From: a virus | Taxonomy: Duplodnaviria; Heunggongvirae; Uroviricota; Caudoviricetes | Virus record (IMG/VR): IMGVR_UViG_3300029288_000136 | Reading direction: 5' to 3' (one strand) | DNA: 64,000 bases | In this document: positions 17,208 to 64,000 of the stretch, one piece after another | Numbering within the stretch: position 1 is the stretch's first letter | Layout of the letters: each line of letters starts with the position of its first letter | Made by a program: the position numbers and the translations under genes | The notes under the pieces: generated by a model | What the model was told of the DNA's origin: nothing | What the model saw: only the letters and a program-made list of their open reading frames with translations | The model's database searches: none

Positions 17208-18968
17208 TTACTCTTTAATTAGATTGAAGAAGGTTTGGGGGAGTAGGGATAAGTGGGATATTATCTTGAAGTTCCTGCGTTGAGGACCGAGGATGTCGTT
17301 GTAGTCCTTGATAACTCTCTCTCTCATTGAAGCGTCTGATTGAATGTAAGCAATTCCATAGATTGAGATGCCTGAGCGGTGAGCTATCTTGGATTGCTCA
17401 ATGGCTTCCTGCTTGTCTGATGCTATGCCGTCAGAAATGAAGAGGATGCGTTTTATGTTATTGGCTTTGCATCTTGTAATGGCAGTCCCAAGGGCTCGTC
17501 CAAGAGGGGTGAGTTTGTCAGCGTCAAAGCCTCCAAGCAAGGCACGGGTTTGGTCTGTGAATCGTTCTGTTCGTTCCTTTACCATGCGGATCTGATCCTT
17601 GTGTCCAAAGTATAGCATCTCGTATTTAATCTTGGTTGTGGTGAGGGCTTCACATATTATTGCTAGTGACATTATGTATTGGTTCTCGTATTGGGAGACG
17701 CTTCCTGAGTTGTCCACTAATATGTATAAGTCGGTTTTGTTTGAGATGCGTTCTTCATTGTTGAAGTATTTGTCGGAGCAGGAGATGTAGGCTTCAGGGT
17801 CGAAGTCTTCTCCTTCAGTGTCTAAGTGCTCATCCCAGCCAATGGTCCACTTCTTGAGACGCTGCTTCATGTCAAGGGTTTCGCGTTGGACTGCTCCCTT
17901 CAATGTGTTGTATCTGCCGATGTCTGAGGAATTGGAGCGGATTATTGGTGTCTTGGCTATCTTCATCTGTTGTGTGTATTGGTCGCATAGTGATTTGAAT
18001 TCTACCTTGAGTTCTTCTGTTGGGGAGGTTTCATCGGAGTCTATTTGTTGCAGGATCTTTTCGACTGCTTCAAGGCTTCCTCTTATTGATGCTTCGGATG
18101 TTTGTATCTTTTGTCCAGGAGTTGTGTTAGTATCAAGTTCTCCAGGTGCTTGGATATAGACCATGTTCAAGCCTTGGGAGTTTGGGTCGAGTTCTTGAGA
18201 GGTTGATCCATTCTCTTTCCTTTCATTGTATTGGTCTCTGAAATCGGGTTCATCTGGGAATAGTTTGGAGAACTTGAATGTGGACTCTATTGCTTGGTCT
18301 GTGGTCTCGATGTCTTGGAATTCAGGTATCAATGCTTTTAGTTGTGTTAGGAGTTCAGGTGAGAGTTTTTCATACATTGGGTTGGTGTCTCTTTCAGTGT
18401 CTTTGGATATGGAGCGGAGAGAGTCGAGGATGTAGAGTCCTGCGATTCTAACAGTTGAGAGAGAGTGCTTTAATCTTGTGTATTCCTTTGCGTTCTTCTT
18501 CAAGTAGTATTGGTCTCTGAAGCGTTGTTCTCTGTAGTAGCCTGTGTAAGTGCGAAGACTGATTTTTTCTATGCGGTAATCTTCTAAGGCATTGAATAAT
18601 TGGAAGATGAATTTGTCTTTGGCGTGTTCTTTTGGCAGTATGTCAGGGTTTATGTGGGGTGTGTGCCAGATGTGGAGTGATTCATGGAAAGTCTCAAAGC
18701 GGAAGAGTCTCCATATATTGAAGTCTTGGGTTAGATCGCCTGAAAACATTGGGAGTTGAGGAATGAGAATTGTGCCTCTGCTGTCTTTAGTAATTAGTGT
18801 GGAGAATCCTTTGTTTGTGAGTGAGGTGATTATATGAGTATTCTTGCATTTGGACCATACACGAGCCAAATGATTCAAGTGATCTACTCTTACATCATTG
18901 GTATAAGTGGTTTGAATAGATTGCTGTTGAGACATATTATCAATGTCGTCTGGAGTTGGTTGTTTCAT
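17208..18968 (-). CDS. CobT/NorD/CbbO-like protein with C-terminal von Willebrand factor A domain
   Basis: MIDAS DxSxS motif (LYILVDNSGSVS) and ILFISDGIAS in the C-terminal third. 586 aa. Partner of the MoxR ATPase 1 kb upstream. Confidence 0.6.
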   Translation of the reverse strand: MKQPTPDDIDNMSQQQSIQTTYTNDVRVDHLNHLARVWSKCKNTHIITSLTNKGFSTLITKDSRGTILIPQLPMFSGDLTQDFNIWRLFRFETFHESLHIWHTPHINPDILPKEHAKDKFIFQLFNALEDYRIEKISLRTYTGYYREQRFRDQYYLKKNAKEYTRLKHSLSTVRIAGLYILDSLRSISKDTERDTNPMYEKLSPELLTQLKALIPEFQDIETTDQAIESTFKFSKLFPDEPDFRDQYNERKENGSTSQELDPNSQGLNMVYIQAPGELDTNTTPGQKIQTSEASIRGSLEAVEKILQQIDSDETSPTEELKVEFKSLCDQYTQQMKIAKTPIIRSNSSDIGRYNTLKGAVQRETLDMKQRLKKWTIGWDEHLDTEGEDFDPEAYISCSDKYFNNEERISNKTDLYILVDNSGSVSQYENQYIMSLAIICEALTTTKIKYEMLYFGHKDQIRMVKERTERFTDQTRALLGGFDADKLTPLGRALGTAITRCKANNIKRILFISDGIASDKQEAIEQSKIAHRSGISIYGIAYIQSDASMRERVIKDYNDILGPQRRNFKIISHLSLLPQTFFNLIKE

Positions 18969-19110
18969 AGTCTCACTCTTATTCTTTGTTTAACTGGTTT
19001 GCATTTATGCTCTTTCATCTCTCTTGGAGTTGGATTTAATAGTAATAACCCACATGACTTACATTTCCAGTTTACTCCAATTGTTAGTTGTTTCATCTTG
19101 CTCCTAAGTG

Positions 19111-19365
19111 TTATAACTCTAAAAGTAACTTTGCATCATTATTCCATGTTCCATCTTTGTTCTCACGCCATGACATGTCTATAAACAAATTCTTCAAGTC
19201 CAGAATGTAAGCAGATTTGTAGTGATGATTTGAGAGTTCTATGGCGATGGCTTCTGCTATTCCAGCAGTTTCAGGTTGTCCTCTTCTTTGATATATGTCT
19301 CTTTTATCTTCCATTGATTTGATATAATATATCTGGGCTTCTTTGTATTCATCCATTGTAATCAC
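19111..19365 (-). CDS. hypothetical protein
   Basis: 84 aa. Confidence 0.3.
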   Translation of the reverse strand: MITMDEYKEAQIYYIKSMEDKRDIYQRRGQPETAGIAEAIAIELSNHHYKSAYILDLKNLFIDMSWRENKDGTWNNDAKLLLEL

Positions 19366-19586
19366 TCCAATTTGATCTTACCTTGTTTGTATTGATGATA
19401 TAATCTGACAACCAATCCTTTGTCTCTTATAGCGATTACTTGATTGTAGGAGCGATCTATGAATTTGGAGATTAATTCTAAGACAGTGAACCATGTGAGC
19501 ATTATTCCAAGTAGGGATATACAGAGACAATCCAGGAAACCAAGGATTATCAGTGTATAGTAAATTGATTCGAGTATTGGGATCAT
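19362..19586 (-). CDS. small two-helix membrane protein (holin-like?)
   Basis: 74 aa with two hydrophobic helices and a charged C-terminus. Confidence 0.3.
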   Translation of the reverse strand: MIPILESIYYTLIILGFLDCLCISLLGIMLTWFTVLELISKFIDRSYNQVIAIRDKGLVVRLYHQYKQGKIKLE

Positions 19587-19828
19587 TCTAATTTCCTCTT
19601 TACATATTCAGCTCTTGCTCTTTGTTCCAGTTCTTCTGCTTTGGAGAGATCGAAGTTGAAGTATTCGAAGGCGGCTAGTATTTGAACTAGGGATTGAACT
19701 ACTGCTTCTTCCACTTCTTTTTGTGTTGTCAGTTCATGTGAGCAGCATCCGCAGCCAGTTGATCTGGCACTGAATCCTTCTTCATCTATTTTGTTATCTT
19801 TATTAGACCAGAAACTCATTAGTCCCAT
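19583..19828 (-). CDS. hypothetical protein
   Basis: 81 aa, CGCC motif. Confidence 0.3.
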   Translation of the reverse strand: MGLMSFWSNKDNKIDEEGFSARSTGCGCCSHELTTQKEVEEAVVQSLVQILAAFEYFNFDLSKAEELEQRARAEYVKRKLE

Positions 19829-20015
19829 TTTAGTTTTTATTTTTTATTCTCTTTGGACAATGATCTATATCGCAGAGACATAATACACCTGGGCCTTCAT
19901 GTCTTGCATAGCATATTGCAGCTTCCATTGTCTCATTTTTGTTGTGTATGATTTCTCTTGAAAGACAATCCTCATTTGAGGTGCTTATTATCCAAGTTAG
20001 TCCCATTTTGCTTGT

Positions 20016-21035
20016 TTAGATTGTAATGTCGTCCGCTTTAACTTTTTGCTCTTCATAGCAGCCAAGGGAATGTGCAAGCGTTTTAAGGTTATCCATGTGG
20101 AAGGTTCCCCATTGTCTCATAGCATTAATCAATGTAAGATCAATGGTTTCGGTCAATGAGTAGCCGCTGTTTAGTAGGTGGGCTGCTGTGATTGATTCTC
20201 TTGTGGTGGGGCGGTATGGGTATTCGTCTGTGCTTCTAATGTTCTCGAATAGCTTCAATACCTTAAGCAAGTCATCGCGGTGTTGTGATTCTAGTGTCAG
20301 CTTTCTTTCGACTATTTTGAGTTCGGTGAAGGCTGGGGGATAGTTGTAGACTAGGCGTGCTGAGAATCGTGAGAGTATTTGTTGGGGTAGTTCCTTTGCT
20401 CCAGGGCAGTCAAGGGGATTGATTGAGGCGGTGAAAAACCAGGAGGGTTTAGCGTGTATTGTTAGTCCTTCATAGTTGAGTTCTCGTCTGTCGTCTAGGC
20501 ATTCATTTAAGCGGATTAGGACATCTGGCTCGGATTGATTGATTTCATCTAGCATTAAGATTGAGCCTTCTTCCATTGAGAGGGGGAGTGGTCCTTTTTT
20601 CCAGTTGATGTTTCCGTCCTGTAAATCCAAGCGTCCAAGTAAATGCTGTTCTCTGCAGCGTAGTGAGAGGTTTAGTGAGTGTATGTTTTGGTTGTATTTT
20701 TCTGCCATTAGTAGAATAGAGATCGTCTTGCCACAACCAGGGGGGCCAATGAGTAGGGGGTTGATTCCTTTTTCATACAAGTGGCATAGTTTTCTGAAAT
20801 TGCCTTCCCAGTCGTAGAATTTGCCTCCGCTTAGGTCTTTGAGTATCCAGATTGCTCCAGAACGTATTATGATATCCTTCTGTTTTAGTGAGTCTAGTGC
20901 AGGGTAGATGTTTTGTATGGTGAGCGGTTCTGGGAGATTTAGGGGTTTGCTCCATTCTATGAGTTCTGTGGGTGAGCCTTTCTTGTGTTGGTCCAGTATT
21001 GATACCAGTATTCCTTCTATTTGTGCTTTATCCAT
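20016..21035 (-). CDS. MoxR-family AAA+ ATPase (CobS/NorQ/CbbQ-like)
   Basis: Walker A LLIGPPGCGKT and Walker B ILMLDEINQ. AAA_5-like, 339 aa. Confidence 0.75.
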   Translation of the reverse strand: MDKAQIEGILVSILDQHKKGSPTELIEWSKPLNLPEPLTIQNIYPALDSLKQKDIIIRSGAIWILKDLSGGKFYDWEGNFRKLCHLYEKGINPLLIGPPGCGKTISILLMAEKYNQNIHSLNLSLRCREQHLLGRLDLQDGNINWKKGPLPLSMEEGSILMLDEINQSEPDVLIRLNECLDDRRELNYEGLTIHAKPSWFFTASINPLDCPGAKELPQQILSRFSARLVYNYPPAFTELKIVERKLTLESQHRDDLLKVLKLFENIRSTDEYPYRPTTRESITAAHLLNSGYSLTETIDLTLINAMRQWGTFHMDNLKTLAHSLGCYEEQKVKADDITI

Positions 21036-33067: not shown

Positions 33068-33568
33068 AATATTAGATTTAGAAACTAAAGTATAAATAGA
33101 TAAGCAGTATTTATAGTTGAAAGAGTATGATAATATTAGAGGAATCCTGCAAAGCCTCGTGTCGGTTATAACATTGGTAGGTTATAAAATTGGGTCACTG
33201 GCTAGTTCCTTGTGTTCATCTAGTCCAGTGATCCTCATATTAGAATCAAGCATATATAAAATCAATCATATCTGTTTGTTTTTTCAATAAGGGATTCAAG
33301 CCTTAGAAGTTTGAAATCAATAGTCCTCTGGATATCTTTGAATACGTTGCGATCTGGATTGATAGCGCATAATATCGTGGTGCTGATTCACGAAATGCAC
33401 GAACTAGGGATAAAGCCAGATTTTAAAAATATATCATTATAATGTACTATTTTTTATAAAAACATATTGATTTATTAACCCTTGTGTGCTATAATATATT
33501 TGTTTGATACCCGCTATCGTTACTGTAACAGTGATGATAGGCTTAGATTACCGTTACATCTGTATATA

Positions 33569-33902
33569 ATGGCTTCTAGTGACAAAGTTGCTATATTTAT
33601 TGATTCGGGCTATTTTAACAAAGCCTTAGAGGAATTTGCCGAAGAGGTAAATGGTAGGAGGAAGTTACCTAGGATAGATTTTGGTAAAATCGGATCTGTC
33701 TTAGCAGAAATAGTAAACGCTGATTTATTTAGGGTATATTTTTATGATTGCCGCCCATTTCAAAGCAGCCCGCCAACACCCGAAGAAAGCACTAAATTTG
33801 CTTTAAATGACCGATTTCTCAAAGCACTAACTCGTATTCCTCGTTTTGTTGTTCGTGAAGGAAGACTTAATCGTTATACCGTAGTATGCAAGAAATGTAA
33901 TA
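33569..33902 (+). pseudogene. NYN/LabA-like nuclease domain gene, N-terminal fragment, interrupted by island
   Basis: MASSDKVAIFIDSGYF... is the NYN N-terminal hallmark. Sequence character changes to GC-rich after ...VVCKKCN. The C-terminal half resumes at 38787. Confidence 0.55.
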
Positions 33903-34129
33903 GGGCAGGGTGCCGGTTGTCTTCGGGTATAATATTTACTGCATGCTGGGCCGTAAGACCGGGAAGTTGCTTGCCCATAATGGGTTGTATGTTAAGAGTT
34001 TAAGCGTCGGATGGGCCGAATTAAAGAGGGATTTCTCCGGGTACGCAGTCAACGGGACTGCCTTGAATGCATCGCTGGATACGGGTAAGTCTTCCGTACA
34101 ATAGAAGTTTTTGTGGGTATTCGTCCTCA

Positions 34130-34640
34130 GGCAGTTATAGTCGAGGGCAAAAGTTGTCCACAGACATGCCCTTAAGGGCAACTAGCCTTTTTTTAAAAAT
34201 CAGATTACGTGCCCTCGAATAGATTCGCGGCCGATAGCAGTCTAAATGCATTTAAGGCATTTGCCTTTTTGCACAATTTATGGCCACGATTATGTCCAAA
34301 TCAGCGTTTTTAAGCTCTTTTGTATCATTATCCGGTTTGCCTTAGGCTGTGGGTTCTTTCCGCCTTGCAGCAGCCGAGGTCATATTATAGTGCAGGAGAT
34401 AACTTTCCTGCGCCCGTCGAGCGCATGCCTGTCAGGCGGAAAATTTGTGCCTAGAGGCACATGCCCCTTGAGGGCAAAGTCCCTTTATCTCCCTGCACTT
34501 GTTTCAAGGGCCAAAATCTTAGGGGTATTCTGGTCCTCGACTATAGTTCTTCAGGTCTTTTGCCTGCCTATTTTACAACAGTTTTCCGGCATTTAGGGAT
34601 TGAATAATCGTGGAGGGATAACTTTTCCCTCCTTAAGGCA
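34130..34640. other. GC-rich non-coding region with multiple perfect palindromes, bounded by 11-bp inverted repeat
   Basis: TATAGTCGAGG at 34137 and CCTCGACTATA at 34533. Internal palindromes GCCCTTAAGGGC, GTGCCTAGAGGCAC and GAGGGATAACTTTTCCCTC. No credible ORF. Confidence 0.45.
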
Positions 34641-34930
34641 TTCCCTGCGAGCATCCCGAGTTTTTCGTGAAAGACCTTTGTTCTCCCGCGCTGGTTTCCA
34701 GTAGGCGGACTTGCCTGGAAGGCGTTCCTCTTTAAAGGCGCGAAAATTTAATCCTTGACTAAGTGTTTTCCCTGTCTGCTCGGGGTCTGCTTCGAACACT
34801 TTTTTTCTATGCCGATGAGCCGCATATTTTCCAGGGAACCTACAGAAAAAAATTTGTTAGACGCAACATATCTTTTATTATAAATATATTCCAGTAAACA
34901 TGATATAAGGACATAGTCTTATATAGTAAC

Positions 34931-35377
34931 GTGACATTACTTTATTTTGCCTATGGCGCGAATATGAACCACAAGCACATGAAAGACGCGTGCTCTCAGA
35001 GCAGGTTCTTGAAGAGGGCTTTTCTGGAGGATCATAAGATAATATACGACGGGTACTCGGATTACATGAGAAGAAGAGCAAGGGCCAATGTCATCAGCTC
35101 TGAGGGCAGTGTCGTGTGGGGCGGCCTGTATGAGATAAGCGAGACGGACCTTGTATCGCTGGACGTATCGGAGTACGCGCCTAACTCATTCGACCGGAAG
35201 ACAACCGTCGTCAAAGACGAGGACGGGAAGACATATGAGGTCATCGTCTACCGCAGGGAAAAAAGGGAGTTGTGCGCGCCTTCTACGGAGTACAGGCAGA
35301 CCATAATACAGGGAGCAAAAGACTGCAACCTCCCCCAGGGATATATAAGGGGGATAAGTTATAGAGTAAGCGGATGA
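34931..35377 (+). CDS. gamma-glutamyl cyclotransferase / AIG2-like protein
   Basis: N-terminal LLYFAYGANMN hallmark (YFAYGSNM of the GGCT/AIG2 family). Confidence 0.55.
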   Translation: MTLLYFAYGANMNHKHMKDACSQSRFLKRAFLEDHKIIYDGYSDYMRRRARANVISSEGSVVWGGLYEISETDLVSLDVSEYAPNSFDRKTTVVKDEDGKTYEVIVYRREKRELCAPSTEYRQTIIQGAKDCNLPQGYIRGISYRVSG

Positions 35378-35391
35378 TTATCAAAATCTGA

Positions 35392-35829
35392 TTACATGTA
35401 TTTAGACTGGCTTTTAGTCTCCCGGGCAGTTGGCTCTTCCTCTGCAGGCACCGGTTCTTCTACCTGGACATCATCGGCCGGTTCGTCTACAGGGTCGTCT
35501 TCCAGGTATTCATCCAGCCGGTAGAGCCAGCAGCATTTGCCGCATTCAAGTTCCAGTTCTCCCGCGCAGTTGCCGTTTGTCCCTTCCTGCATCACTATTT
35601 CCCCGTCTCTCACATATGCTGTTATCTTGTTCTGGCATTCGGGGTTCTCACAGGTGAAAGACACTTTTTCCGCCTCGCACACAAGTTCCGGTTTATAGAC
35701 CATGTTCTCATCCTCCGATAGATCTTCGTTTAGTATCGCTCTTTCTGCGCTCGTGTAGCTTCCATATCTCAAGACAAGATATAGAAGGTACGCAACGCCA
35801 ACCAGGAAAAATAAGCTTCCCAAGTCCAT
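35392..35829 (-). CDS. membrane-anchored Cys-rich acidic protein
   Basis: N-terminal TM helix, CxxC pairs, acidic tail. Downstream of the flotillin gene. Confidence 0.4.
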   Translation of the reverse strand: MDLGSLFFLVGVAYLLYLVLRYGSYTSAERAILNEDLSEDENMVYKPELVCEAEKVSFTCENPECQNKITAYVRDGEIVMQEGTNGNCAGELELECGKCCWLYRLDEYLEDDPVDEPADDVQVEEPVPAEEEPTARETKSQSKYM

Positions 35830-35833
35830 TAAA

Positions 35834-37210
35834 TCATTCCTTCTTCTTTGTTTCGTGCTTTATCTCGTGCCTGCGCGTTATGGGCTCTACTCCGACAGCT
35901 TCGAATATCTTCGGCAGAGCCGCTGTTCCCTGCATCACGGTATTCAGGATGGATCCGCCAAGTCCCATGTCTGACGTATCCCCTGTCTGGACTATCGTTA
36001 TCTTGTCTCCGATGTTCTTCAGGGGCTCTGCTATTCTCTCGGCTATCAAAGGAAGCGTCTCTATCTTCATTATCTCAAGGCCGCTCTGGTTCAATTCCTT
36101 GTATGCTTCCGCCTTCTTCTGGACTCCTTCCGCTTCGGCTAGAAGCTTTTGTTTCTGTCCCTCCGCTTCGGCCAGTAATTTTGCCTTTATTGCTTCCGCT
36201 TCCCCGATCCCTTCCAGCTTCTTCTTCTCGGACTCTCCCGCCGCAATAGCGATCGTCTTGACTTTCTCGGCCTCTCCTTCAAGCTGCTGTATTTCCTTGT
36301 TTCGTTCGGATATCTCTACTTGTTTCTGCTTCTGTATTAGTTCGATCTTCATCTGCTCTTCTTTCAGTTTCTGTGTTTGTATGGCAGTCTCTATATCCTT
36401 TGCCTTGTCGGCCATGGCCTGCTGCGTGAATGTCTCCTGGTTGTATAGCGCCATCTTTATCTGTTTTTCTTTTTCGTATTCTGCTATCTTTGTCTGCGCT
36501 ATGTTCTCCTGCTCGCTTGCTTCCTGGTTCGCCTTGGCGGTCGCCTTCCGGGACTCGCTCTTCGCGTTGGCTTCGGCTATCTCCGCTGCTTTTATCTTTT
36601 CGGCAAGCTCCTTTGCGTAGAGGGACTCTATGTACCCTCTGCCGGTCTCTTTCTTTGTTGACGATGAATCGCTGATGTCCTTTATCGTGAAGGATACTAT
36701 CGAGAGGCCCATCTTCTCCAGGTCGTCTTTTGCGTTCTCAAGGACCCTTTTGTTGAAGCTTTCCCGGTCCTGTATCAATTCCTCGACTGTCATGTTGGCG
36801 CATATCGCCCTTATGTGGCCCTCCATTGTCTCTTCTATCTTCTGCATTATCCTTTCGGTCTCAAAGCCCAGGAATGATTTTGATACGTTGGCGTATCCTT
36901 CTTCGGTGTCCTGCAACTGTAATTGTGCGACTGCTTCCACGTCGACGGGAACGATAAGCTGAGTCTGCACGTTTTCCTTTACTATTGTGACGGTCATAAG
37001 CTGTTTTGTTATGGACCACGCTTCTTCCAGGACAGGGAATATGAGCGTTGCTCCTCCCGACACGAATCTTGTTCCTTTCCTTCCGGAGATCACCATAAGC
37101 TTTGACGGGGGTACTTTGATATAGTTCCTGCTCATAACATACGCTCCCCCCATGACCGCTATTGCTCCCCCGCCGACTATTATCGGCAGCACGAATCCGT
37201 CGATGTTCAT
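35834..37210 (-). CDS. SPFH/band-7 flotillin-like protein
   Basis: N-terminal TM helix plus SPFH-like domain, then a long EA-rich coiled coil (AEAEG repeats). 4-nt overlap with the upstream NfeD gene. Confidence 0.65.
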   Translation of the reverse strand: MNIDGFVLPIIVGGGAIAVMGGAYVMSRNYIKVPPSKLMVISGRKGTRFVSGGATLIFPVLEEAWSITKQLMTVTIVKENVQTQLIVPVDVEAVAQLQLQDTEEGYANVSKSFLGFETERIMQKIEETMEGHIRAICANMTVEELIQDRESFNKRVLENAKDDLEKMGLSIVSFTIKDISDSSSTKKETGRGYIESLYAKELAEKIKAAEIAEANAKSESRKATAKANQEASEQENIAQTKIAEYEKEKQIKMALYNQETFTQQAMADKAKDIETAIQTQKLKEEQMKIELIQKQKQVEISERNKEIQQLEGEAEKVKTIAIAAGESEKKKLEGIGEAEAIKAKLLAEAEGQKQKLLAEAEGVQKKAEAYKELNQSGLEIMKIETLPLIAERIAEPLKNIGDKITIVQTGDTSDMGLGGSILNTVMQGTAALPKIFEAVGVEPITRRHEIKHETKKKE

Positions 37211-37788
37211 TTTTCAGCCTCTCTTGATGCTTTTTTTACTTTCAACATGTCGCCGCATAGTCCGGCGACTATTACATTCGTTCCCTTGGGCAGGCTTTCG
37301 TCCGAGACCGCCAGTAAAGACTTATGGCTCCCGTCTACGAAAAGAACTTCCCCCTTGTCGCCCGCGCCCTTTATCTCCACTGTCACTACGCCCTCTTTTC
37401 CTATGAAATCCCTCAGCTTGCGTATAGAGCTTGGCGAATTGGAGAACACCTTGGACATTAGATACGTTGATGAGACGGTTATCGCTAAAGAGATAAAAAG
37501 CGACGCAGGAACCAGGACAAAAGGACTCATTTCAGGATACGCGAGCAGGAGATATACCCCGGCCCCTCCGAAAGTCGTGCAGAACGCGCCCATCGCGAAT
37601 GTGCCAAAGCCGTGGAAAGACACTCCGTCGAATGCATCCCCCAGGAGGGATATGCCATCCAACGCGTTGCCCACGCCTTCCAATACCCCTTCCAGGGCGT
37701 CGCCTAATATGTCGGCAAAGAAGCTGACAACTGTGATCAATAGCCCCATCAAGAATATTATTCCGAAAACTAGTAGAATATCTATCAT
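37207..37788 (-). CDS. NfeD-like membrane protein
   Basis: Multi-TM N-terminus plus a C-terminal OB-like segment (GKEGVVTVEIKGAGDKGEVLFVDGSHKSLLAVSDESLPKGTNVIV). Classic operon partner of SPFH proteins. Confidence 0.5.
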   Translation of the reverse strand: MIDILLVFGIIFLMGLLITVVSFFADILGDALEGVLEGVGNALDGISLLGDAFDGVSFHGFGTFAMGAFCTTFGGAGVYLLLAYPEMSPFVLVPASLFISLAITVSSTYLMSKVFSNSPSSIRKLRDFIGKEGVVTVEIKGAGDKGEVLFVDGSHKSLLAVSDESLPKGTNVIVAGLCGDMLKVKKASREAEK

Positions 37789-37945
37789 TTTTATTGAATA
37801 ATATTTAGATTATGTTATATTTATATAAATATTCTGTATAAAACTTTGATTCTTTCCTGAATTTGTAGATTTGTGGGAAGTGAGCGAATGTAGTGCCTAA
37901 CTTTCCGGACCAAAAAAAATATTTAAATAATCAGAAAACACATAC

Positions 37946-38458
37946 ATGTATGTGATGAAAGCCAGCAAACATCGCATGCTTTCTTTTATGATGGTCGCCG
38001 CGTCTACCGCTGCCGGCGCGAACTCCGTAATGGGCCCTCTGACAGGCATTTGGGGAGTGGCAATGATATTCTTATTCCTCCCGGTATGGCTTCTTGAGGC
38101 CGTAATCATTTACTTCGCAGCAAGGAAGATATGTTCCTACAGTATAAGCCTCAAGCGCGCATTTATCACGTCTTTTGCAGCCAACACCGCCTCGACAATA
38201 GGCGGCCTTATGGCAATGCAAATTTGCTACTTTATTACCTTCCTACTGTTCCATAACTATACCCTGAGCATATTTTACGAGATCGTCCCCGTCTTTGCCC
38301 TGGGTTTTGTGATAACGGTCATCATAGAAACGGTCGTGGTGCATATCTCAGTCAAGGATAAAGGCAGAGGCTGCAAGCCTTTTTATATTTCCATGCTGAT
38401 GAATCTGGCGTCATATGCCCTGCTTGCAGCGCTTGCAGTCATCAGATACAGTCGTTGA
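37946..38458 (+). CDS. integral membrane protein
   Basis: Four or five hydrophobic helices. GC-richer codon usage like the island. Confidence 0.4.
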   Translation: MYVMKASKHRMLSFMMVAASTAAGANSVMGPLTGIWGVAMIFLFLPVWLLEAVIIYFAARKICSYSISLKRAFITSFAANTASTIGGLMAMQICYFITFLLFHNYTLSIFYEIVPVFALGFVITVIIETVVVHISVKDKGRGCKPFYISMLMNLASYALLAALAVIRYSR

Positions 38459-38783
38459 CGTTCTTAAGCCACATTAGCAGCGTCGACTGAACCGTTCCGG
38501 ATGCCTCGGCGCTTATCCTCTCCGCGTCGTATCCGAACGTTATTAGCAGGTTCTCGAGAGCCCGGACCAATAGTTCGTAGTACTTGTCCGGATCGTATTC
38601 CCCCCGTATCTGCTTCGGCGTGTAGCGCCGCTCGGGCTTCTTCGCGCAGGCATCTGTTATCACGTACTCGACCGATTCCCCCGGCCGGGTCTTCAGACCG
38701 TAGCGTTCCAGCTTTTCCATCACGACCTTTTGCGCCGCCGCGCTCTTGTATTCATTCCGCTCCCTTGTCACGCTCTTGAACAT
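38442..38783 (-). pseudogene. C-terminal (thumb) fragment of an archaeal-type family-B DNA polymerase
   Basis: ...GESVEYVITD...EYDPDKYYELLVRALENLLITFGYDAERI...QSTLLMWLKNVN aligns with the conserved PolB C-terminus (G..I.Y.V...YDP.K..YDAEYYIENQVLPAV.RIL..FGY...Q..L..WL). It has no N-terminal 600+ aa and ends at the island junction. Confidence 0.65.
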
Positions 38784-38786
38784 ACA

Positions 38787-39062
38787 ATTGACTACAAGCA
38801 GAAAGGCGTAGATATACTACTATCTATGGATTTAGTAAAGTTGGTTTCTAAGGAAGAAATAAACAAAGCAGTACTAATAACTGGTGACAGTGACTTTGTG
38901 CCTGCGGTTCGAATGGCAAAGGATGATACGATCCAAATTTATTTGATACATGGTACTAGAATCCATAATGGAAAAACTCTTCCACTAGCTCATGATGAAC
39001 TTTATTCGTTATGTGACGAACGCATACCTATAACAAAGGAGCTACTTAAAAGGCTGACCTAA
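38787..39062 (+). pseudogene. NYN/LabA-like domain, C-terminal fragment
   Basis: IDYKQKGVDILLSMDLVKL...AVLITGDSDFVPAVRMA matches the NYN C-terminal core (KGVD...SGDSDF.P). No own start codon, since the tracked ORF start lies antisense to the PolB fragment. Confidence 0.55.
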
Positions 39063-39225
39063 TCATCTCTTTCTGCTAATAAACTCCCTCGTCTGCTAAT
39101 AAAGTCGCTGGTTTTCATGACTAAATTAGCAAAGCCAGTATAGATATGTTAGGATAAGTATAAAACAGATAGAAGAATCTAAGGGGATACCAAGAAGAAT
39201 CCAGAGAAGTATTAACCTGGAATAC

Positions 39226-47068: not shown

Positions 47069-47465
47069 TTGGTTTATCGTATTTCAATAAGAGTTCACAT
47101 AGGTCGGCTTTAAATAAGTGTTCATCAGAGGGTGAGAGCTTGATTCCAAGGTCCGTATAAAGCAGTAGAGTGATGGAGGTTGAGAGTTTGAGGAGGGAGT
47201 CATAGGGTGTAGCTGGAGGGGTTGTGGTTTGGTGGGTCAGGATGACTGCATAGGACTCTATCTTAGACAGTGTGTTGCGTTCTTTCTCCATTAGGAACCA
47301 GGTGTTCAACATGCGAAGGGAGTCGAATTGAAGCAATCGCTTGGAGAAATGGATGTCAAAGTCCTTATTAGACATAAGGCGTTCAGATGTTGGGGAAATC
47401 ATTGTAATCAGGTGAAGTCTCTGAGTTCGTCTTTGTTCATTGGTCGGGAGGCTCCACATATACAC
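47052..47465 (-). CDS. hypothetical protein
   Basis: 137 aa. Confidence 0.3.
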   Translation of the reverse strand: MYMWSLPTNEQRRTQRLHLITMISPTSERLMSNKDFDIHFSKRLLQFDSLRMLNTWFLMEKERNTLSKIESYAVILTHQTTTPPATPYDSLLKLSTSITLLLYTDLGIKLSPSDEHLFKADLCELLLKYDKPNENID

Positions 47466-48535
47466 GAGACAGTCATATCTACCATGTCGTAACAGCAGTA
47501 GTCGTGTTTCTTACAGGTTTTCTCCTCAGTGGATTTTTTCTTTGAGGAATTTAGTTCTGAATCCTTTGAGAAAGTCCTGAACCAGGACTCCTTTTCCTTA
47601 GCGACTTGGACTAGTTTGGCGGCTTCCTTCTTGATTGCTTTGATTATGCGGTTTGGAATTTTTCGTCCAAGATACTCATAGATAAAGATTTCCTGATCCC
47701 TGGTCTCAATGGCCTCCTTACAATAATGCTTTCTAACATAGTCGATTGGGTCTGTTTTCTTGGAGAGGTGGAGACCGCACCATATTGCTAGGACGGTTCC
47801 AGTGCGGCCGTGAGCTCCTTCACATGTGACCAATACTTTTCCAGTGGTGGTTCTCTCTTTTAAGTAGTCAATGATCACATCCATTTGTTCTTTGGTTGGG
47901 GGAGTGCGGTCCATGACATCAACGATTAATGGAGAGAAGTAGCGGGTGTCAAAGATGGGGTATTCTCTGAGGGTGTGGTTGTCAGTCATAACCCAACCTG
48001 AGAATTCCTTCAAGCGATCATAAGGTATTGTGTAGGACATCAGGCGGACTGGTTGTAGATTGAATAGCTTGGGGTGGCTGTGTTCAATGGTGTGGGAGCA
48101 AGTATCAAAGTTGTAATAAGTGTTTGAGTGGATACAAGCTGAGCCTTTGGTGTAGAGGCCGCCGCTCAATGTGGTTTGACCTCTCATCATAGCTTCCTCT
48201 TGTTCGAGCTTGTATTCTTCAAACATGTCGCGTTCTTCTTCTGATGAGGCGCATTGAGTTAGGTAGCCTTCACATGCCAAGACAATGCGCTCATAATCTT
48301 CTTCAGAGTGACATTCAAGAGCGCAATCACATCCAATGCAGTCTACAGGTGAGCCGCATATGTCAATGTCTGATATCATAGTAGAATCTACAAGTGGAAG
48401 GATACCATAATCCTTTGACTCCTTTTCGCTCACATCGTGGTCTGAGAATAAGGAGACAATGGCTTGGTTCTCATTGATGTCATCTGAGAAGTCTTCATTT
48501 GAGTTACGTCTGCTTGTGTGTTTGTTTCGTCCCAT
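47408..48535 (-). CDS. Cys-rich protein with dual-specificity/tyrosine phosphatase (CX5R) domain
   Basis: VLVTCEGAHGRTGTVLAIWCGL fits the HC-x5-R(S/T)G P-loop signature, with the TPPTKEQ region upstream. The N-terminal half is Cys-rich. Confidence 0.5.
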   Translation of the reverse strand: MGRNKHTSRRNSNEDFSDDINENQAIVSLFSDHDVSEKESKDYGILPLVDSTMISDIDICGSPVDCIGCDCALECHSEEDYERIVLACEGYLTQCASSEEERDMFEEYKLEQEEAMMRGQTTLSGGLYTKGSACIHSNTYYNFDTCSHTIEHSHPKLFNLQPVRLMSYTIPYDRLKEFSGWVMTDNHTLREYPIFDTRYFSPLIVDVMDRTPPTKEQMDVIIDYLKERTTTGKVLVTCEGAHGRTGTVLAIWCGLHLSKKTDPIDYVRKHYCKEAIETRDQEIFIYEYLGRKIPNRIIKAIKKEAAKLVQVAKEKESWFRTFSKDSELNSSKKKSTEEKTCKKHDYCCYDMVDMTVSCICGASRPMNKDELRDFT

Positions 48536-55211: not shown

Positions 55212-56749
55212 CCAATATCGACTTACAGATCAAGACCGGACTAACAACCTCAGACTTCATAATAAAAGGAGCCACAGACTTCAAATACTGGGCCGAAACC
55301 CTATACGACTACACAATCAAACCATACCACATCGAATGGGCCAACAACCTAACACAACAAACACGCTCCTCAACCATCGCAGCAAGAGGACTAGGCAAAT
55401 CACTCATACTAGGAACCCTAATGCCCATCTGGCTAAGCTTCTACGACTACACACCACAGACAACAAACCTAAAAGGAATAGTAATAGCAGCCCAAAACCT
55501 AAGCCAAAGCACTAAACTAATGATGAACATCCGAAACCACATCAACAAAACAGAACTAACACAACTACTCATACCAAAAACAGGAGACTACACCTGGACC
55601 AAAAAAGAAATAAACACCACAACCGACTGGAAAATAAACGTACTACCATACAGCGACAACGCAAGAGGACCACACGTCCCATACCTCCTAATGGAAGAAG
55701 CAGGTCTATTCACCGACCTAGAAATATACACAGACGTATTCCTACCAATGATCCAAAGAGCCAACGGCAACGCAATGTTATTAGGGACCCCAAAAACAGC
55801 ATACGACCTGCTAGCAAGAAGCCAAATACCCGGAAGCGGATACCAGATAAGCAAATACCCCCTAATCAAAAACGGAGAATGCATCCTACCAGAAATATTC
55901 CCCCCAGAACGAATACAACAAATACGAAAAGACATCGGAGAACTAAGCTTCGCAAGAGAATACCTACTCGAAATAGTAGGAGAAGGACGAGCAATAAAAA
56001 CACAACACATAATAGACAGCCTAGACCCAACAGAAACCTTCACCACACTAGGAACCGAAACAGGAGAATACTACATAGGAGCAGACCTAGCACTATCCCC
56101 CACAGGAGACTACACAGTACTAACAGTCATAGAACGCTACAATGGACGCTACCACATCCGCAAAATAGAAGAATACCGCGGCATGAGCTTCGACAACCAA
56201 ATAAACACCATAGCCACCCTATACAAACAATACAACCCCGTCACCCTACTAATAGACGAAAGCAACTTCGGAGGAATAGTAACCCAAAAACTACAAACAC
56301 AATACAACATACCAGCCCAAAGCATCAAATTCCTCCCAACCACCCGCAACACCATGCTCATAAGACTAATAAACACCTTCACATCAAACAAAATAACCAT
56401 ACCACGAAACCCCAACTGCCCCACCACCCTCACACTAACAGACCACCTACTAGACCAAATAAGCAGCCTACACAGCGACAAAACACGCAGCGGCCAAGAC
56501 ACCTACAAAGCATCAACAAAACACGATGATTCTTTAATGTCCCTAGCACTAGCCCTACACGCAGCAGGAGACACAGACAACTACCAAGAAACAGCCATAC
56601 TAACAGCCAAACCACCAACAAACCAAACACAACAAAACAAGATAATACAAGACAACTACTATGAAACAATACAAAAAATGAGACAAAAACCAATAAAAGA
56701 AACCAAAGAATACGGATCAGCCTTCAACAAATGGCTACCACACAACTAA
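55205..56749 (+). CDS. terL: terminase large subunit
   Basis: Deviant Walker A AARGLGKS, Walker B LLMEEAG. C-terminal nuclease-domain acidic motifs are IGADLALSP, LLIDESNFGG and KHDDSLMSLALALH. 514 aa, immediately upstream of the portal candidate. Confidence 0.8.
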   Translation: MLTNIDLQIKTGLTTSDFIIKGATDFKYWAETLYDYTIKPYHIEWANNLTQQTRSSTIAARGLGKSLILGTLMPIWLSFYDYTPQTTNLKGIVIAAQNLSQSTKLMMNIRNHINKTELTQLLIPKTGDYTWTKKEINTTTDWKINVLPYSDNARGPHVPYLLMEEAGLFTDLEIYTDVFLPMIQRANGNAMLLGTPKTAYDLLARSQIPGSGYQISKYPLIKNGECILPEIFPPERIQQIRKDIGELSFAREYLLEIVGEGRAIKTQHIIDSLDPTETFTTLGTETGEYYIGADLALSPTGDYTVLTVIERYNGRYHIRKIEEYRGMSFDNQINTIATLYKQYNPVTLLIDESNFGGIVTQKLQTQYNIPAQSIKFLPTTRNTMLIRLINTFTSNKITIPRNPNCPTTLTLTDHLLDQISSLHSDKTRSGQDTYKASTKHDDSLMSLALALHAAGDTDNYQETAILTAKPPTNQTQQNKIIQDNYYETIQKMRQKPIKETKEYGSAFNKWLPHN

Positions 56750-57474
56750 AACACCAAACTAATCAAGCCACACAATCAACTGACACAATCAACTGACACA
56801 ATCAACTGACACAACTAACAGAGACAACTAACAGAGACAAACAAACCAAAAAACCAACCAAGACAACACAAGTAAACAAAGACAACCAAACACACAACAT
56901 ACCAATATGAATAAGCAAAGACAACTAACACAACTAACAGAAACAACACAACCAAACCACGCAACTAAGCAGACAAAGATAACTAAACCAAACAACAAAC
57001 TAACACAACCAAAACAAGACAACTAAAACAAGACAACTAAACCAAGACAATTAGATCATACAATAAAACCATACAACCAAACCAAGACAGATAAACTAAA
57101 AAAACTAACTAACTCAACTGTTAAGAATCAAAACAACTAACAGAGATAACATAACCAAATCACACAATTAATCAAAATAACTAAACAACACAATTAGATC
57201 ATACAACTAAACCATACAACTAACTAACACAACAAACCAAATAAAACAAATCAAAAACAACCAAACACAAACCAATCAGAAAAATTTAATATAAATACTA
57301 CAATACATATACAACTAATATATACCATACAAAACTAATTAATAAAAAACCAAATAAACAAGCACTAAAACAAACAGATATCAAAACAAATAAATACAAA
57401 AACAAATAAAAACCAAATTAATAAAAAACAAGACTAAAAAACAACAATAACATACAATCAATAAATATTACAAG
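56750..57474. repeat. A/C-rich low-complexity spacer with tandem repeats
   Basis: Plus strand is almost entirely A and C. CACAATCAACTGA x3 (56771-56809), CAACTAACAGAGA x2, ACAAGACAACTAAA x2, and ACAATTAGATCATACAA at both 57051 and 57191. Confidence 0.6.
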
Positions 57475-58893
57475 ATGACAACACCAAATCAAAAAACAAA
57501 AACCCAAAGAAGATCACAACCAATATCAACACACACACAAAACATACAAAACACCGGATTCCAAGGAATAATACCCACACTGCAAAAATTCATGTACGGA
57601 GAACAAAAAACAGACAACACCCCCGAACCGGAAATAGGAAACAAAGGATACAGCACCGGACTAACACTAAACAGGGCAAGCAAAGCAGACCTGGAAGCAC
57701 TATACATAAGCGACCCAGTAATATTCAACGGAATAAACACCTACTACAAAACAATCCTCTCAAACCCCCCAACCCTGACAAACGGATCGGAAAAAGACCA
57801 AAAAAAACTAGACCAATTCAGCAAACAAATAAAACTACAAAGAAGCATAATACCAAGCATAACCCAACACAGCCTCATATACGGAACCGCGTGGAATGAA
57901 AAAATCTACAACAAAGCCCCCAGAGGAAACATCCTACACAAAATACTCGGAATACCCACAAGAGACCCCAAACTAATGGACTTCCTAAGACACCAAAACA
58001 CCAACTACATAAGATTCAACGAAGTAGGAGAACCGGAAGGATACTGCCAATACATAGCTGACGGAATACACTACGAAGGAACCGACACCATAATAAACGG
58101 AACAAACAGCCTAAAAGCCATACCCTTCACCCCAAACAAAATAATGTGGACCAACTACATAGCAGTAGGAGACACCTATGAAGGAATAGGCCTGGTCGAA
58201 CCAATACTAAACAGCTCACTAGACAAAAACAACGCCCAAAAAGGATTCAGCGCATACATCTACCGACTAGGACACGGACTACTAGGCATCAAAGCAGGAA
58301 ACGAAAGATTCATACCCTCAACCGACATGATACACAAAGCCATACAGATCTTCAGCAACATAAACACCGAAACAGTAGTCTCCTACCCCTACTACCTACA
58401 ACCCGAAATGATCGAACCCAAAAGAGGAATAGAACGACTAAGAGAACAAGTAGACTACTTCATAGACCAACAAATAGCCGGAATCGGTTTGCCAGCATGC
58501 TTAGTAACAGGCCAAGGAACTTCTATGAACCGCAGCATCCTGGACAAAATGATGATGCTATTCTACCAAAGCCTCACCATGATCCAAAACAACATATCTA
58601 TAAGCATAGAAGACAACCTATCCCAAGAACTAATGGACATATACGGACTAGACAACCCCCCAAGACTAGAATGGCCCGACATAAACATAGAAAGCATGGA
58701 CAGCAAAGCAAACAGGCTAAGCACATACGCAAAAGCAGGCCTGCTAGGAGCCACCCCAATGCTGCAGACATACATACGACACTCAGAACACCTACCCCAA
58801 GAAGGAGACAACACGCCCAACACGCCAGACACCCAATCAAACGAAGACCAGGAGAACCACAAATCAAAGCTGGATTCAATCCTCGACTTCTAA
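57475..58893 (+). CDS. portal protein candidate
   Basis: 472-aa ORF directly after terL in head-module order. Size and position only, no motif checked. Confidence 0.5.
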   Translation: MTTPNQKTKTQRRSQPISTHTQNIQNTGFQGIIPTLQKFMYGEQKTDNTPEPEIGNKGYSTGLTLNRASKADLEALYISDPVIFNGINTYYKTILSNPPTLTNGSEKDQKKLDQFSKQIKLQRSIIPSITQHSLIYGTAWNEKIYNKAPRGNILHKILGIPTRDPKLMDFLRHQNTNYIRFNEVGEPEGYCQYIADGIHYEGTDTIINGTNSLKAIPFTPNKIMWTNYIAVGDTYEGIGLVEPILNSSLDKNNAQKGFSAYIYRLGHGLLGIKAGNERFIPSTDMIHKAIQIFSNINTETVVSYPYYLQPEMIEPKRGIERLREQVDYFIDQQIAGIGLPACLVTGQGTSMNRSILDKMMMLFYQSLTMIQNNISISIEDNLSQELMDIYGLDNPPRLEWPDINIESMDSKANRLSTYAKAGLLGATPMLQTYIRHSEHLPQEGDNTPNTPDTQSNEDQENHKSKLDSILDF

Positions 58894-58907
58894 ACCACAT
58901 AAAAAAG

Positions 58908-61094
58908 ATGCCAAACCCCCAAACTAACACCAAACCACCACATGAAAACAATGAGAAAATAGCGGAGTTGGTTCACTCCAACTCCGAAATAGGCTCGTCA
59001 GGATCCTCACCAACATCTTCCCCCGATTCCTCCGTCTCGGAAGCATCCTCGACTACGGAACCTCGCTCAGACTCGGCTTCATATCCTTCCTCGTTACAGG
59101 GATTGGTTCACGCCAATCCCACGTTACCTACGGAGTCGGTCTCTAAGACCTCCTCGACGTTACAATTACAAGATGAATCATCTGTGAATGTTACATCAGA
59201 CGTTACATTACGAGAACAAATAGCCAATCAATCCCATACTCAATGGTCTAAATGGATGGAATATCTATTCAATGAATCAAATCAATTAGAAGATGGAACA
59301 GTAAGCATCCCACCAACTAAAGTAAGCAGATGGAAGAGACAAATAGTTACAGATTACAAAGACTTAACTATAGAAGAGCAGAATAGTGACTTAAAAGAAG
59401 CAGATATCTACATACAAATCTTTAATTCATACTTACATAATTCCAAAGAGACCTTAGATAATGCAGAGTTAGTTCAATCCAACTCTGAAATGAATGAATC
59501 AAGTGAAAAACCACTGAATAAAGAAGAAAAGAACGCTCCGACCAACTGCGAACTAATGAAGCCATTCACCCCAATGCAGATGACAAACAAACAAATGAAC
59601 ATAGAAGACATCAATTACTACTTCAACGACAAATACTCAGAGAAATACATGCTATTCAACCAAACAAACAAAGGAACACACATATTCCTACATAAAGGAA
59701 GCAGATGGAACGGTTCAACAGTAAAGATATACAACGACAACAAAGAAGAGATAACTGACAGATACCCAGACATAGTATACCAAGCACCTGAACTGACAGA
59801 TTACTCCATAATAGTGGAAGGAATAATAGAAAACAATGGAACACTAGACTCTGGAACTCTAAATGGAACACCAAAAGGAACAGTAAACTCTGGAACACAG
59901 AATGAAACACTAAATGAAACACTAAATGGAACACTACAACTATACGACATACTATACTACGACCAACCGATGAACAGATCACAGCTGATAGAAAGACTAA
60001 GAGTATTATTCATGAATATAAAAGACACTGAAAACATAAAGAAGAACAGACCAATACCTGAGAAAAACATCAAACACATGATCAAACTAGCTAAAAAGAT
60101 GGGAACAGGCATAATAAGACACCTAGACTCAGCCTACCATATCAATGAACATGGAAACGACAAAGGATTCCAACTCTCAGACACTTCTGCAGCCTCCTCC
60201 ACTAACACTGATACAATATATAATAATATACATACAATAGGCAACAACACTTCTACAATACTAAAAGAGATATCAGACAAATTACCACAAACATTCATAT
60301 CAGAATTAAGCAAAGCAAAAGACAACTGGATACCATTCACACTATCAAAGCATTACAGAGGACACAAAGAAGGAAATAATATAATAATGAATAGCGTACA
60401 CCAGGATCTAAGATTCAACATCCCCAATTCAACAAACGTACAAGCAATAACGATACTAACACCAGGAAACAATGAAAATCAGGACCTACTAACAATAGGG
60501 GAAGCAGCTAGAAATGGAAAGATAAGATTCCTGGTAAAAGAACCAGAACCAATACAAAGCACAAAACCAACATACTACCAAGAGAATAACCCAGGAGCCA
60601 CAACAGTACCTGGATTCAGCATAGTAGTAGCAGAAGGCCAATACACGCTCCTGGAATCAACAGATACCAAGCTACATATCGAATTAAACTGCATAGAGTC
60701 CTCATCCAGTGAAGGAGAGCATACAGTAAGAAAAAACAAGGAAGTCATAGATAAAGCGCTGGAAGCAGGGATCAAAGTAGACGAAATAGACTGGAGTACT
60801 TTAAAAGACATATCAGGGGTGTGGAGCCTAAGCGAAGCGCATATGACAGACACTACAATACTACTTATGAGGCTTCTAAACAGGGGAACAGCAAGATTAC
60901 TTGAAAAAGTAGACAAAACATGGATGGAACAAGTCAAAAAAGGACACATACACAAGACCGGAGTAAACAAGGAAAAACTATACAAAATAGCCCTTATGAG
61001 CGAAGAAGGATACTACAGACCAGAGATAGCCAAAGAGATAGGAACAAACAAGGACACAGTATACAGATGGCAGAAAGCATTAGGATACTACTAA
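58908..61094 (+). CDS. large head-module protein with Ser-rich linker and C-terminal HTH
   Basis: Start set at the first ATG after the portal stop, because the tracked ORF start at 58497 lies in an alternative frame of portal. GC-rich Ser/Thr/Pro linker (SSGSSPTSSPDSSVSEASSTTEP). C-terminal EIAKEIGTNKDTVYRWQKALGY is HTH-like. Confidence 0.45.
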   Translation: MPNPQTNTKPPHENNEKIAELVHSNSEIGSSGSSPTSSPDSSVSEASSTTEPRSDSASYPSSLQGLVHANPTLPTESVSKTSSTLQLQDESSVNVTSDVTLREQIANQSHTQWSKWMEYLFNESNQLEDGTVSIPPTKVSRWKRQIVTDYKDLTIEEQNSDLKEADIYIQIFNSYLHNSKETLDNAELVQSNSEMNESSEKPLNKEEKNAPTNCELMKPFTPMQMTNKQMNIEDINYYFNDKYSEKYMLFNQTNKGTHIFLHKGSRWNGSTVKIYNDNKEEITDRYPDIVYQAPELTDYSIIVEGIIENNGTLDSGTLNGTPKGTVNSGTQNETLNETLNGTLQLYDILYYDQPMNRSQLIERLRVLFMNIKDTENIKKNRPIPEKNIKHMIKLAKKMGTGIIRHLDSAYHINEHGNDKGFQLSDTSAASSTNTDTIYNNIHTIGNNTSTILKEISDKLPQTFISELSKAKDNWIPFTLSKHYRGHKEGNNIIMNSVHQDLRFNIPNSTNVQAITILTPGNNENQDLLTIGEAARNGKIRFLVKEPEPIQSTKPTYYQENNPGATTVPGFSIVVAEGQYTLLESTDTKLHIELNCIESSSSEGEHTVRKNKEVIDKALEAGIKVDEIDWSTLKDISGVWSLSEAHMTDTTILLMRLLNRGTARLLEKVDKTWMEQVKKGHIHKTGVNKEKLYKIALMSEEGYYRPEIAKEIGTNKDTVYRWQKALGYY

Positions 61095-61372
61095 AAGTTG
61101 TCACTAATCTAAGTGAGAAAAATAGAGACAAAAAACCAGATAAACAACACACAACAAACCAAACACAATAAATTACAAACACAATACATTATAAACACAA
61201 CATATCCCAAACACAATACATTGAGAACACAATATATTAATATGGTTATAATAAATGATGTATTGATTTCTAATATACAATTCCAAATATACAACACCAT
61301 ATCAAATATACTCAATAAATATAAGCAAAAATATAAGTAAATAATCAGATTAAGAATACAAACAAGAAAAGA

Positions 61373-62524: not shown

Positions 62525-62582
62525 GAACAAAACACCAAGAATAAAAACAAAAAAAAACAATAAACAAAAAAAAAGAGAAAAG

Positions 62583-62624
<42 letters not shown>

Positions 62625-62673
62625 TAAGAATAAAAAAAATAAATAAAAACAAACAGGTAAAAAAAAAAACAAG

Positions 62674-63876: not shown

Positions 63877-63902
63877 AAAACGCAGACAAAACAACCAATC
63901 TA

Positions 63903-63916
63903 TTTTTTTTTTTTTT
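63903..63916 (+). terminator. T14 run downstream of capsid gene (oligo-T terminator candidate)
   Basis: 14 consecutive T, 27 nt after the stop codon. Confidence 0.4.
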
Positions 63917-64000
63917 ATTATATAATTGATGAATAGCGGCAAAAACAAGAGAGAAAAAGCCGACAAACATACGATAACCAATAAAACAAACTAAAAAACG

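Follow-up and report, generated by a model that had tools for sequence, protein, structure and literature searches.

In a 64,000-nucleotide (nt) stretch of DNA from a tailed virus (Caudoviricetes; IMG/VR record IMGVR_UViG_3300029288_000136), which we refer to throughout as the window, an operon on the minus strand encodes a short NfeD-like membrane protein, a flotillin and a cysteine-containing membrane protein. The NfeD-like gene (37207-37788; 193 amino acids, aa) comes first and specifies a transmembrane region and a putative C-terminal OB-fold domain. It is followed by a FloT/YqiK-like flotillin gene (35834-37210; 458 aa), with SPFH/Band_7 and Flot domains, and then by a third gene (35392-35829; 145 aa) whose product, here called the Cys protein, has an N-terminal anchor, a zinc-ribbon-like core and an acidic tail. 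On the plus strand, a gene of the GGACT/AIG2-like gamma-glutamyl cyclotransferase family (34931-35377; 148 aa) converges on the operon. All four genes had been picked out in an earlier sequence-only reading, and a list of open reading frames (ORFs) confirmed them at these coordinates. As that reading had also noted, the NfeD and flotillin genes overlap by four nucleotides, ATGA, which hold the stop of the one and the start of the other, at 37207-37210 (minus strand AAATGAAC at 37212-37205); the same type of overlap is found in the homologous locus L009, and the spacing between the flotillin and Cys genes is 4 nt. NfeD likewise lies directly upstream of flotillin in the homologous loci L009, L003 and L001. 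Genes for the terminase TerL, portal, head protease, major head protein and tail proteins in the window bear out that the operon sits in a tailed-virus genome.

Among the family assignments proposed earlier, those of the flotillin and the cyclotransferase passed the Pfam cut-offs directly, whereas that of NfeD draws its support from its orthologues. The flotillin matched Band_7 (PF01145; 72.4 bits, E = 6e-20, cut-off 23.6) and Flot (PF15975; 41.4 bits, E = 2e-10, cut-off 27). Its residues 34-437 align with residues 6-409 of human flotillin-1 (PDB 9bq2, E = 5e-50), human flotillin-2 is also aligned end to end, and a Kyte-Doolittle hydrophobic segment at residues 1-26 forms an N-terminal membrane anchor. 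The NCBIfam FloT model (NF058507), whose equivalog cut-off is 700, gave 254 bits, so the protein is FloT-like rather than an orthologue of Bacillus subtilis FloT. The NfeD-like protein itself scored 20.7 bits with Pfam NfeD (E = 5e-4), under the 29.1-bit cut-off, but four of its four orthologues matched the family (best E = 3.6e-8). The sole PDB matches of the NfeD profile were the NfeD OB-folds 2exd and 2k5h, both weak (E about 0.5), and a single-sequence AlphaFold2 model was of low quality (mean predicted local distance difference test score, pLDDT, 52.7). The protein is hydrophobic at residues 1-32 and 87-110 and matched no protease family in Pfam; it is thus a short form that lacks the ClpP-type domain.

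The Cys protein had no family match in Pfam, PHROGs, NCBIfam or PADLOC, and a HMMER pass over 1.84 billion representative proteins returned two matches, of which one was its orthologue cluster and the other was marginal. Residues 1-24 are hydrophobic, and the motif CX4C...CX2C (C60, C65, C96, C99) is invariant. From these features the protein appears to be a lineage-specific, membrane-anchored, zinc-ribbon-like orphan, conserved only alongside the NfeD-flotillin operon. The cyclotransferase matched PF06094 (47.2 bits, 4e-12, cut-off 22.8), PF13772 AIG2_2 (51.6 bits, 1e-13, cut-off 27) and phrog_2520 (8e-16), a PHROG classed as moron/auxiliary metabolic gene (AMG). Comparison with homologues revealed no frameshifts or stops in the four genes. 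An archaeal TATA-box-like motif, TTTATATA, lies on the minus strand at 37822-37829, 34-41 nt upstream of the NfeD start, within DNA (through 37835) that is conserved with L001 and L009. The operon runs in the same orientation as the surrounding viral minus-strand genes. This co-orientation and the motif, as a putative promoter, make transcription of the operon in infected cells plausible.

The operon and the GGACT gene lie within an island of 4,878 base pairs (bp) whose composition departs sharply from that of the virus. Its GC content is 0.481 against 0.381 for the remaining window, a difference of about 5.7 standard deviations over other segments; the maximum among 248 other 4.9-kilobase (kb) segments was 0.414. 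GC content steps up from about 0.33-0.40 to 0.46-0.53 at around 33.9 kb and drops back at around 38.78 kb. At third codon positions it is 0.55-0.64 in island genes and 0.56-0.65 in genes of the donor-type chromosomal loci described below, compared with 0.27-0.51 in viral genes.

The island splits a viral gene of the NYN/LabA family. The N-terminal half of this gene (33569-33905, plus strand) continues out of frame into the island to a stop at 34003, and the C-terminal half (38785-39062, plus strand) covers Pfam NYN positions 71-124. Once fused, the halves give a single Pfam NYN match over profile positions 1-124 (42 bits) and align colinearly with an archaeal homologue that is intact (P0127, contig L017; 201 aa), at 58% identity over 99% of the length. 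By tblastn, residues 1-107 of this homologue map to 33560-33901 and residues 113-200 to 38793-39056; none of the target codons was lost by the insertion. The left viral/host junction falls at 33896-33909, uncertain by about 10 nt, with alignment to L009 starting at about 33896 in nucleotides and at 33907 in protein. The right junction falls at 38778-38784, with the L009 alignment extending to 38777 and NYN homology resuming from 38785-38793. Both can be placed only within these intervals because the true donor and the empty site are unavailable. A repeat search found no terminal inverted or direct repeats, no target duplication and no repeat pair bracketing the island, and family searches found no transposase, integrase, reverse transcriptase or recombinase gene in it. 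Nor was there any intron or other Rfam RNA over 33400-39200, even at E<=10. On the archaeal chromosomal contigs with the nearest intact homologue (58%; L017-L020), the NYN gene adjoins an HD-domain gene.

Both ends of the island are formed by truncated host genes. At the left end (33907-34104, plus strand) lies the 3' fragment of a 5'-truncated rhodanese gene, comprising its last ~70 codons; its translation shares 75% of amino acids with the L009 rhodanese (178 aa; residues 107-159) and matches that of L021 too. At the right end (38442-38783, minus strand) lies the 3' fragment of a 5'-truncated archaeal family-B DNA polymerase (PolB) gene, comprising its last ~110 codons. It corresponds to positions 616-715 of 717 in the NCBIfam PRK05761 models and is 71-75% identical to the C-termini of the 724-728-aa PolB proteins of L001, L009 and L021. 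On these three contigs, which come from uncultivated archaea, both genes are full-length. Since the cells have whole PolB and rhodanese genes and the virus only truncated ones, the transfer ran from host to virus.

The donor-type loci share the order PolB (724-728 aa), a 374-608-aa protein, NfeD, flotillin, Cys and GGACT (opposite strand), followed by a 182-aa protein, a 75-aa protein, full-length rhodanese (opposite strand) and response-regulator/PAS genes. The closest flotillins, 93-95% identical in amino acid sequence to that of the window, are on L001, L009, L010 and one further contig, and the GGACT protein is 83-91% identical to the copies of L001, L009 and L021. At the DNA level, identity to these loci is 80-82% over 34824/34884-37835 and 72-76% over the two end fragments; the rest of the donor-type sequence has no match in the window. 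The donor-type PolB is 55-56% identical to PolB on long housekeeping-rich contigs, one of them labelled as an Altiarchaeota metagenome-assembled genome (MAG), that also encode CTP synthase, aspartate-semialdehyde dehydrogenase and a CDC48-type ATPase. A 144-aa gene just upstream of the donor-type PolB recurs on those contigs with 50% identity. This conserved upstream gene and the PolB likeness indicate that the donor-type loci are chromosomal. A search for the donor species of the flotillin among GTDB representative genomes yielded only distant bacterial flotillins (26-33% identity).

One of the three loci, L021 (252-6109; PolB 83% identical to that of L001), keeps the neighbourhood from PolB to rhodanese with GGACT but lacks NfeD, flotillin and Cys, which shows that this host region is variable and gives no sign that GGACT depends on the operon. 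The adjacency of GGACT, from which the sequence-only reading had speculated on a functional link, is therefore synteny inherited from donor-type chromosomes, and any connection with glutathione metabolism would be speculation.

Our preferred, and probable, reading is that the operon and the GGACT gene are intact archaeal chromosomal genes that arrived in a ~4.9-kb piece of host DNA through a recent non-homologous capture into the viral NYN gene. Truncated host genes at the ends of a GC-discordant island are the signature of recent, unprocessed capture of host chromosome. The same features, an off-composition island that splits NYN with parts of PolB and rhodanese still attached, leave the earlier preference for an auxiliary module over hitch-hiked DNA unsupported, and for now we would class the module as a passenger or a candidate moron. 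We infer that a host chromosome fragment running from within the rhodanese gene to within the replicative PolB gene entered the virus and would have inserted at a double-strand break in NYN/LabA, by end joining or another form of illegitimate recombination. Capture of a random fragment is the simplest account because there is no recombinase, repeat or intron RNA and because the donor breakpoints fall inside ordinary genes. Transcription, if any, would start from the TATA-like promoter of the operon or come from read-through of the co-oriented viral genes. An expressed operon would give a FloT/YqiK-type flotillin that may oligomerise into a membrane-attached cage or scaffold. Its short NfeD partner would accompany it, and, as expected for a family whose C-terminal domain Pfam calls 'partner-binding', the NfeD OB-fold may bind the SPFH protein; the zinc-ribbon membrane Cys protein would be made along with both.

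Two further parts of the island flank the four genes. A GC-rich stretch at 34105-34885 contains no ORF of at least 120 aa and has no Rfam match. On both strands it folds better than shuffled sequence (z = -3.0 and -4.6), and it holds weak colinear traces of the 182-aa protein of L021 and L009. It is possibly a decayed remnant of the donor 182-aa gene or a structured element; identification of this part of the island as an intron or noncoding RNA was rejected, Rfam being empty at both the gathering score and E<=10. Within the stretch, the hairpin motif CATGCCC(C)TT(A/G)AGGGCAA occurs twice (34165-34181 and 34460-34477), and there is a 12-nt inverted repeat (34135-34146 / 34535-34546). On the other side of the operon, ORF and hydropathy analysis delineated a 170-aa gene with four transmembrane segments (37946-38458, plus strand). 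This orphan has no family match in Pfam, PHROGs, NCBIfam or PADLOC and no counterpart in L001, L009 or L021, where its place is taken by a 374-631-aa protein. PADLOC gave no defence-system match for NfeD, flotillin, Cys, GGACT or the 170-aa protein, and a defence-system reading was rejected on this ground.

Comparison with the cellular loci bears on selection and on the age of the capture. Ratios of nonsynonymous to synonymous substitution rates (dN/dS) between the window and L009 or L001 were 0.03-0.05 for flotillin, 0.04-0.06 for GGACT, 0.14-0.15 for NfeD and 0.16-0.18 for Cys, showing purifying selection along the lineage. Cell-to-cell values between L009 and L001 were essentially equal to these window-to-cell values, so the low ratios can be explained by selection before capture. 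The synonymous distance (dS) between the window and the sampled loci is large (0.8-1.3), which means that the real donor is absent from these loci. In the end fragments, pN/pS was somewhat higher, at 0.19-0.31 (0.29-0.31 for rhodanese) versus 0.12-0.16 between cellular copies. Open reading frames persist in the end fragments, over 113 and 64 codons, and in each half of NYN. Together with the unadjusted base composition of the island, this argues that the event was recent.

Several observations weigh against recent passive capture. The island is present in one viral genome only and the searches described below brought up no relative whose NYN site is empty, so that recency and polymorphism are not directly measurable. 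The true donor is more diverged than any sampled locus, and the junctions are placed only to within about 10 nt, too coarsely to judge microhomology. Furthermore, the four genes are intact while the neighbouring 34105-34885 lacks an ORF, a pattern that could reflect selective retention in the virus, and an NfeD-flotillin pair on a separate group of virus-like contigs (L003-L007) hints at recurrent usefulness.

These points lead to the most serious rival, in which NfeD, flotillin and Cys, with or without GGACT, form an adapted auxiliary module, kept because its expression during infection reorganises or stabilises the host membrane. Such a module might, for example, confer tolerance of envelope stress, tune lysis timing or provide platforms for assembly or egress; host origin is compatible with this proposal, and its distinct claim is selection within the virus. 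It would fit with four intact genes of low dN/dS, a TATA-like promoter inside the island and an operon co-oriented with neighbouring viral minus-strand genes. Loss of coding capacity from 34105-34885 and pN/pS values in the flanking fragments (0.19-0.31) somewhat above those of the intact genes point the same way, as does the moron/AMG class of the GGACT PHROG. There are also precedents elsewhere: flotillin-family proteins are encoded in complete phage genomes (csAssE-Sib and Vibrio phage KIT04), T4-like phages have SPFH proteins (PMC1524935), and an NfeD-flotillin pair is present on L003-L007. However, selection in cells before capture can fully account for the low dN/dS, since L009 and L001 show the same values between themselves. 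The island has not shed its gene fragments, its orphan membrane gene or its 0.8 kb of non-coding DNA, a viral NYN gene was destroyed by the insertion, the composition of the island has not adjusted to that of the virus, and the island is known from a single genome. On balance we consider adaptation within the virus rather unlikely.

The window genes resemble known cellular systems. As in YuaF(NfeD2)-FloT(YuaG) of B. subtilis and YqiJ-YqiK of Escherichia coli, the flotillin gene of the window directly follows, and is translationally coupled to, the gene of a short membrane NfeD, and its product combines an N-terminal anchor with an SPFH domain and a C-terminal Flot coiled-coil. Unlike these bacterial pairs, the window operon is archaeal in origin and virus-borne, and its third gene encodes a zinc-ribbon membrane orphan. 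End-to-end homology also relates the flotillin to the eukaryotic flotillin-1/flotillin-2 cage (PDB 9bq2, 9l3g) and suggests that it may form a similar ring or cage, but the window has a single flotillin paralogue and an NfeD partner in place of a hetero-oligomer.

Among viruses, a 2006 paper described SPFH genes of T4-like phages (PMC1524935), and crAss-like csAssE-Sib, Vibrio phage KIT04 and the T4-like phages 44RR, Aeh1 and RB43 resemble the window virus as tailed viruses with Band_7 proteins, with or without a Flot domain. By contrast, these are bacterial viruses, their SPFH proteins are only 23-25% identical to the window flotillin, and their genes lack a recognisable adjacent NfeD and lie outside any obvious raw host fragment. 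Another parallel comes from morons and auxiliary genes that viruses gained by illegitimate recombination, which are host-derived, off-composition, equipped with their own promoter and located between or within viral genes. In the window, the host-derived genes are similarly flanked on both sides by viral genes, the island lying inside NYN. What distinguishes the window from the usual moron is that the capture is early, with truncated host neighbours still attached and a viral gene split. Host-derived viral cargo and virus-borne SPFH genes were thus both already known, and the window locus adds to both kinds.

The virus-like contigs L003-L007 (16-113 kb, GC content 0.51) bear on whether such captures recur. 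Their NfeD and flotillin are 38% and 43% identical in amino acid sequence to those of the window (for example, L003 9328-11383), and, as in the donor operon, the pair lies near a family-B polymerase gene. This PolB differs, however, in being phage-type (phrog_262, 265 bits) and only 28% identical to the donor PolB. A T4 endonuclease-V-like gene lies near the pair, and, unlike in the window, there is neither a Cys nor a GGACT gene. No structural genes were found within the 21 kb read. We judge these contigs to be probably viral, and they may represent a second, independent virus-borne flotillin system. A mobile backbone shared between L003-L007 and the donor loci was rejected, because the PolB proteins are 28% identical and the donor PolB is chromosomal. 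Literature searches turned up no publication that deals with flotillin or NfeD of archaeal viruses. It is doubtful that archaeal tailed viruses repeatedly capture NfeD-flotillin, once in the window virus and independently in L003-L007, and keep it as membrane-organising genes. If they do, the window locus would be a first step of domestication, and no flotillin system of an archaeal virus would have been described before it.

A third explanation is that host reads were misjoined into a viral contig during assembly. The abrupt composition change in a metagenomic assembly is what such a chimera would produce, and the handling of the source contig by NCBI, which (protein MFA5132835.1) bins it in a MAG of the bacterial 'Candidatus Paceibacterota', is error-prone. 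Yet a chimera would need two false joins at one codon, with both NYN halves colinear with an intact homologue. The source contig, ~84.9 kb, is present in ENA, NCBI, JGI and Logan, assembled independently, and the contigs carrying the same protein in these four collections differ slightly in length (84,899 and 84,939 bp). Misassembly is accordingly very improbable. Given the captured archaeal fragment and an NYN gene of archaeal affinity, the placement in Paceibacterota looks like a mis-binning and the host appears to be archaeal.

It is just as improbable that a self-mobile element, such as a transposon, an integrative element or a group I/II intron with cargo, inserted itself into NYN: the clean insertion with zero target codons lost and the non-coding, structured 5' part of the island would suit one, but the island has no transposase, integrase or reverse-transcriptase gene, no terminal repeats and no Rfam family, and both its ends lie inside ordinary host genes that are complete in donor-type chromosomes.

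We looked for relatives of the virus in several collections. A terminase tblastn of INPHARED identified no close viral relative, and IMG/VR scans with the flotillin, a flotillin alignment, the fused NYN, the terminase and the major head protein were likewise without a close relative. The fused NYN retrieved neither a close viral relative nor an empty NYN site from a collection of 5.8 billion proteins. Capture requires that virus and donor DNA were once in the same cell, so the island provides a physical host link for this orphan tailed virus. The host would be an uncultivated archaeon, and the nearest matches of its chromosomal PolB are in Altiarchaeota-labelled MAGs. With truncated host genes and a split viral gene still legible, the locus offers an early snapshot of moron or auxiliary gene acquisition. 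It also carries a warning that an intact host-like operon in a virus need not be an adaptation. If the operon is expressed, virus-encoded SPFH scaffolds would extend to archaeal viruses.

Elsewhere in the window, the viral backbone has several features of its own. On the minus strand (17208-21035), genes for a VWA-domain protein (17208-18968) and a MoxR-type AAA_5 ATPase (20016-21035) lie near each other, as they typically do in MoxR-VWA chaperone systems. The same strand carries a Cas4/RecB-like exonuclease gene (9963-10799) and a PTP-SAK-type phosphatase gene (47408-48535). A tRNA search of the window found none. On the plus strand, 58497-61094 encodes a protein of 865 aa in which an ATP-dependent ligase domain is combined with a helix-turn-helix at the C-terminus; its ORF overlaps the portal ORF by about 400 nt. 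The head-gene block (56000-64000) shows an AT skew of 0.4-0.6 and a negative GC skew, far beyond the rest of the window.

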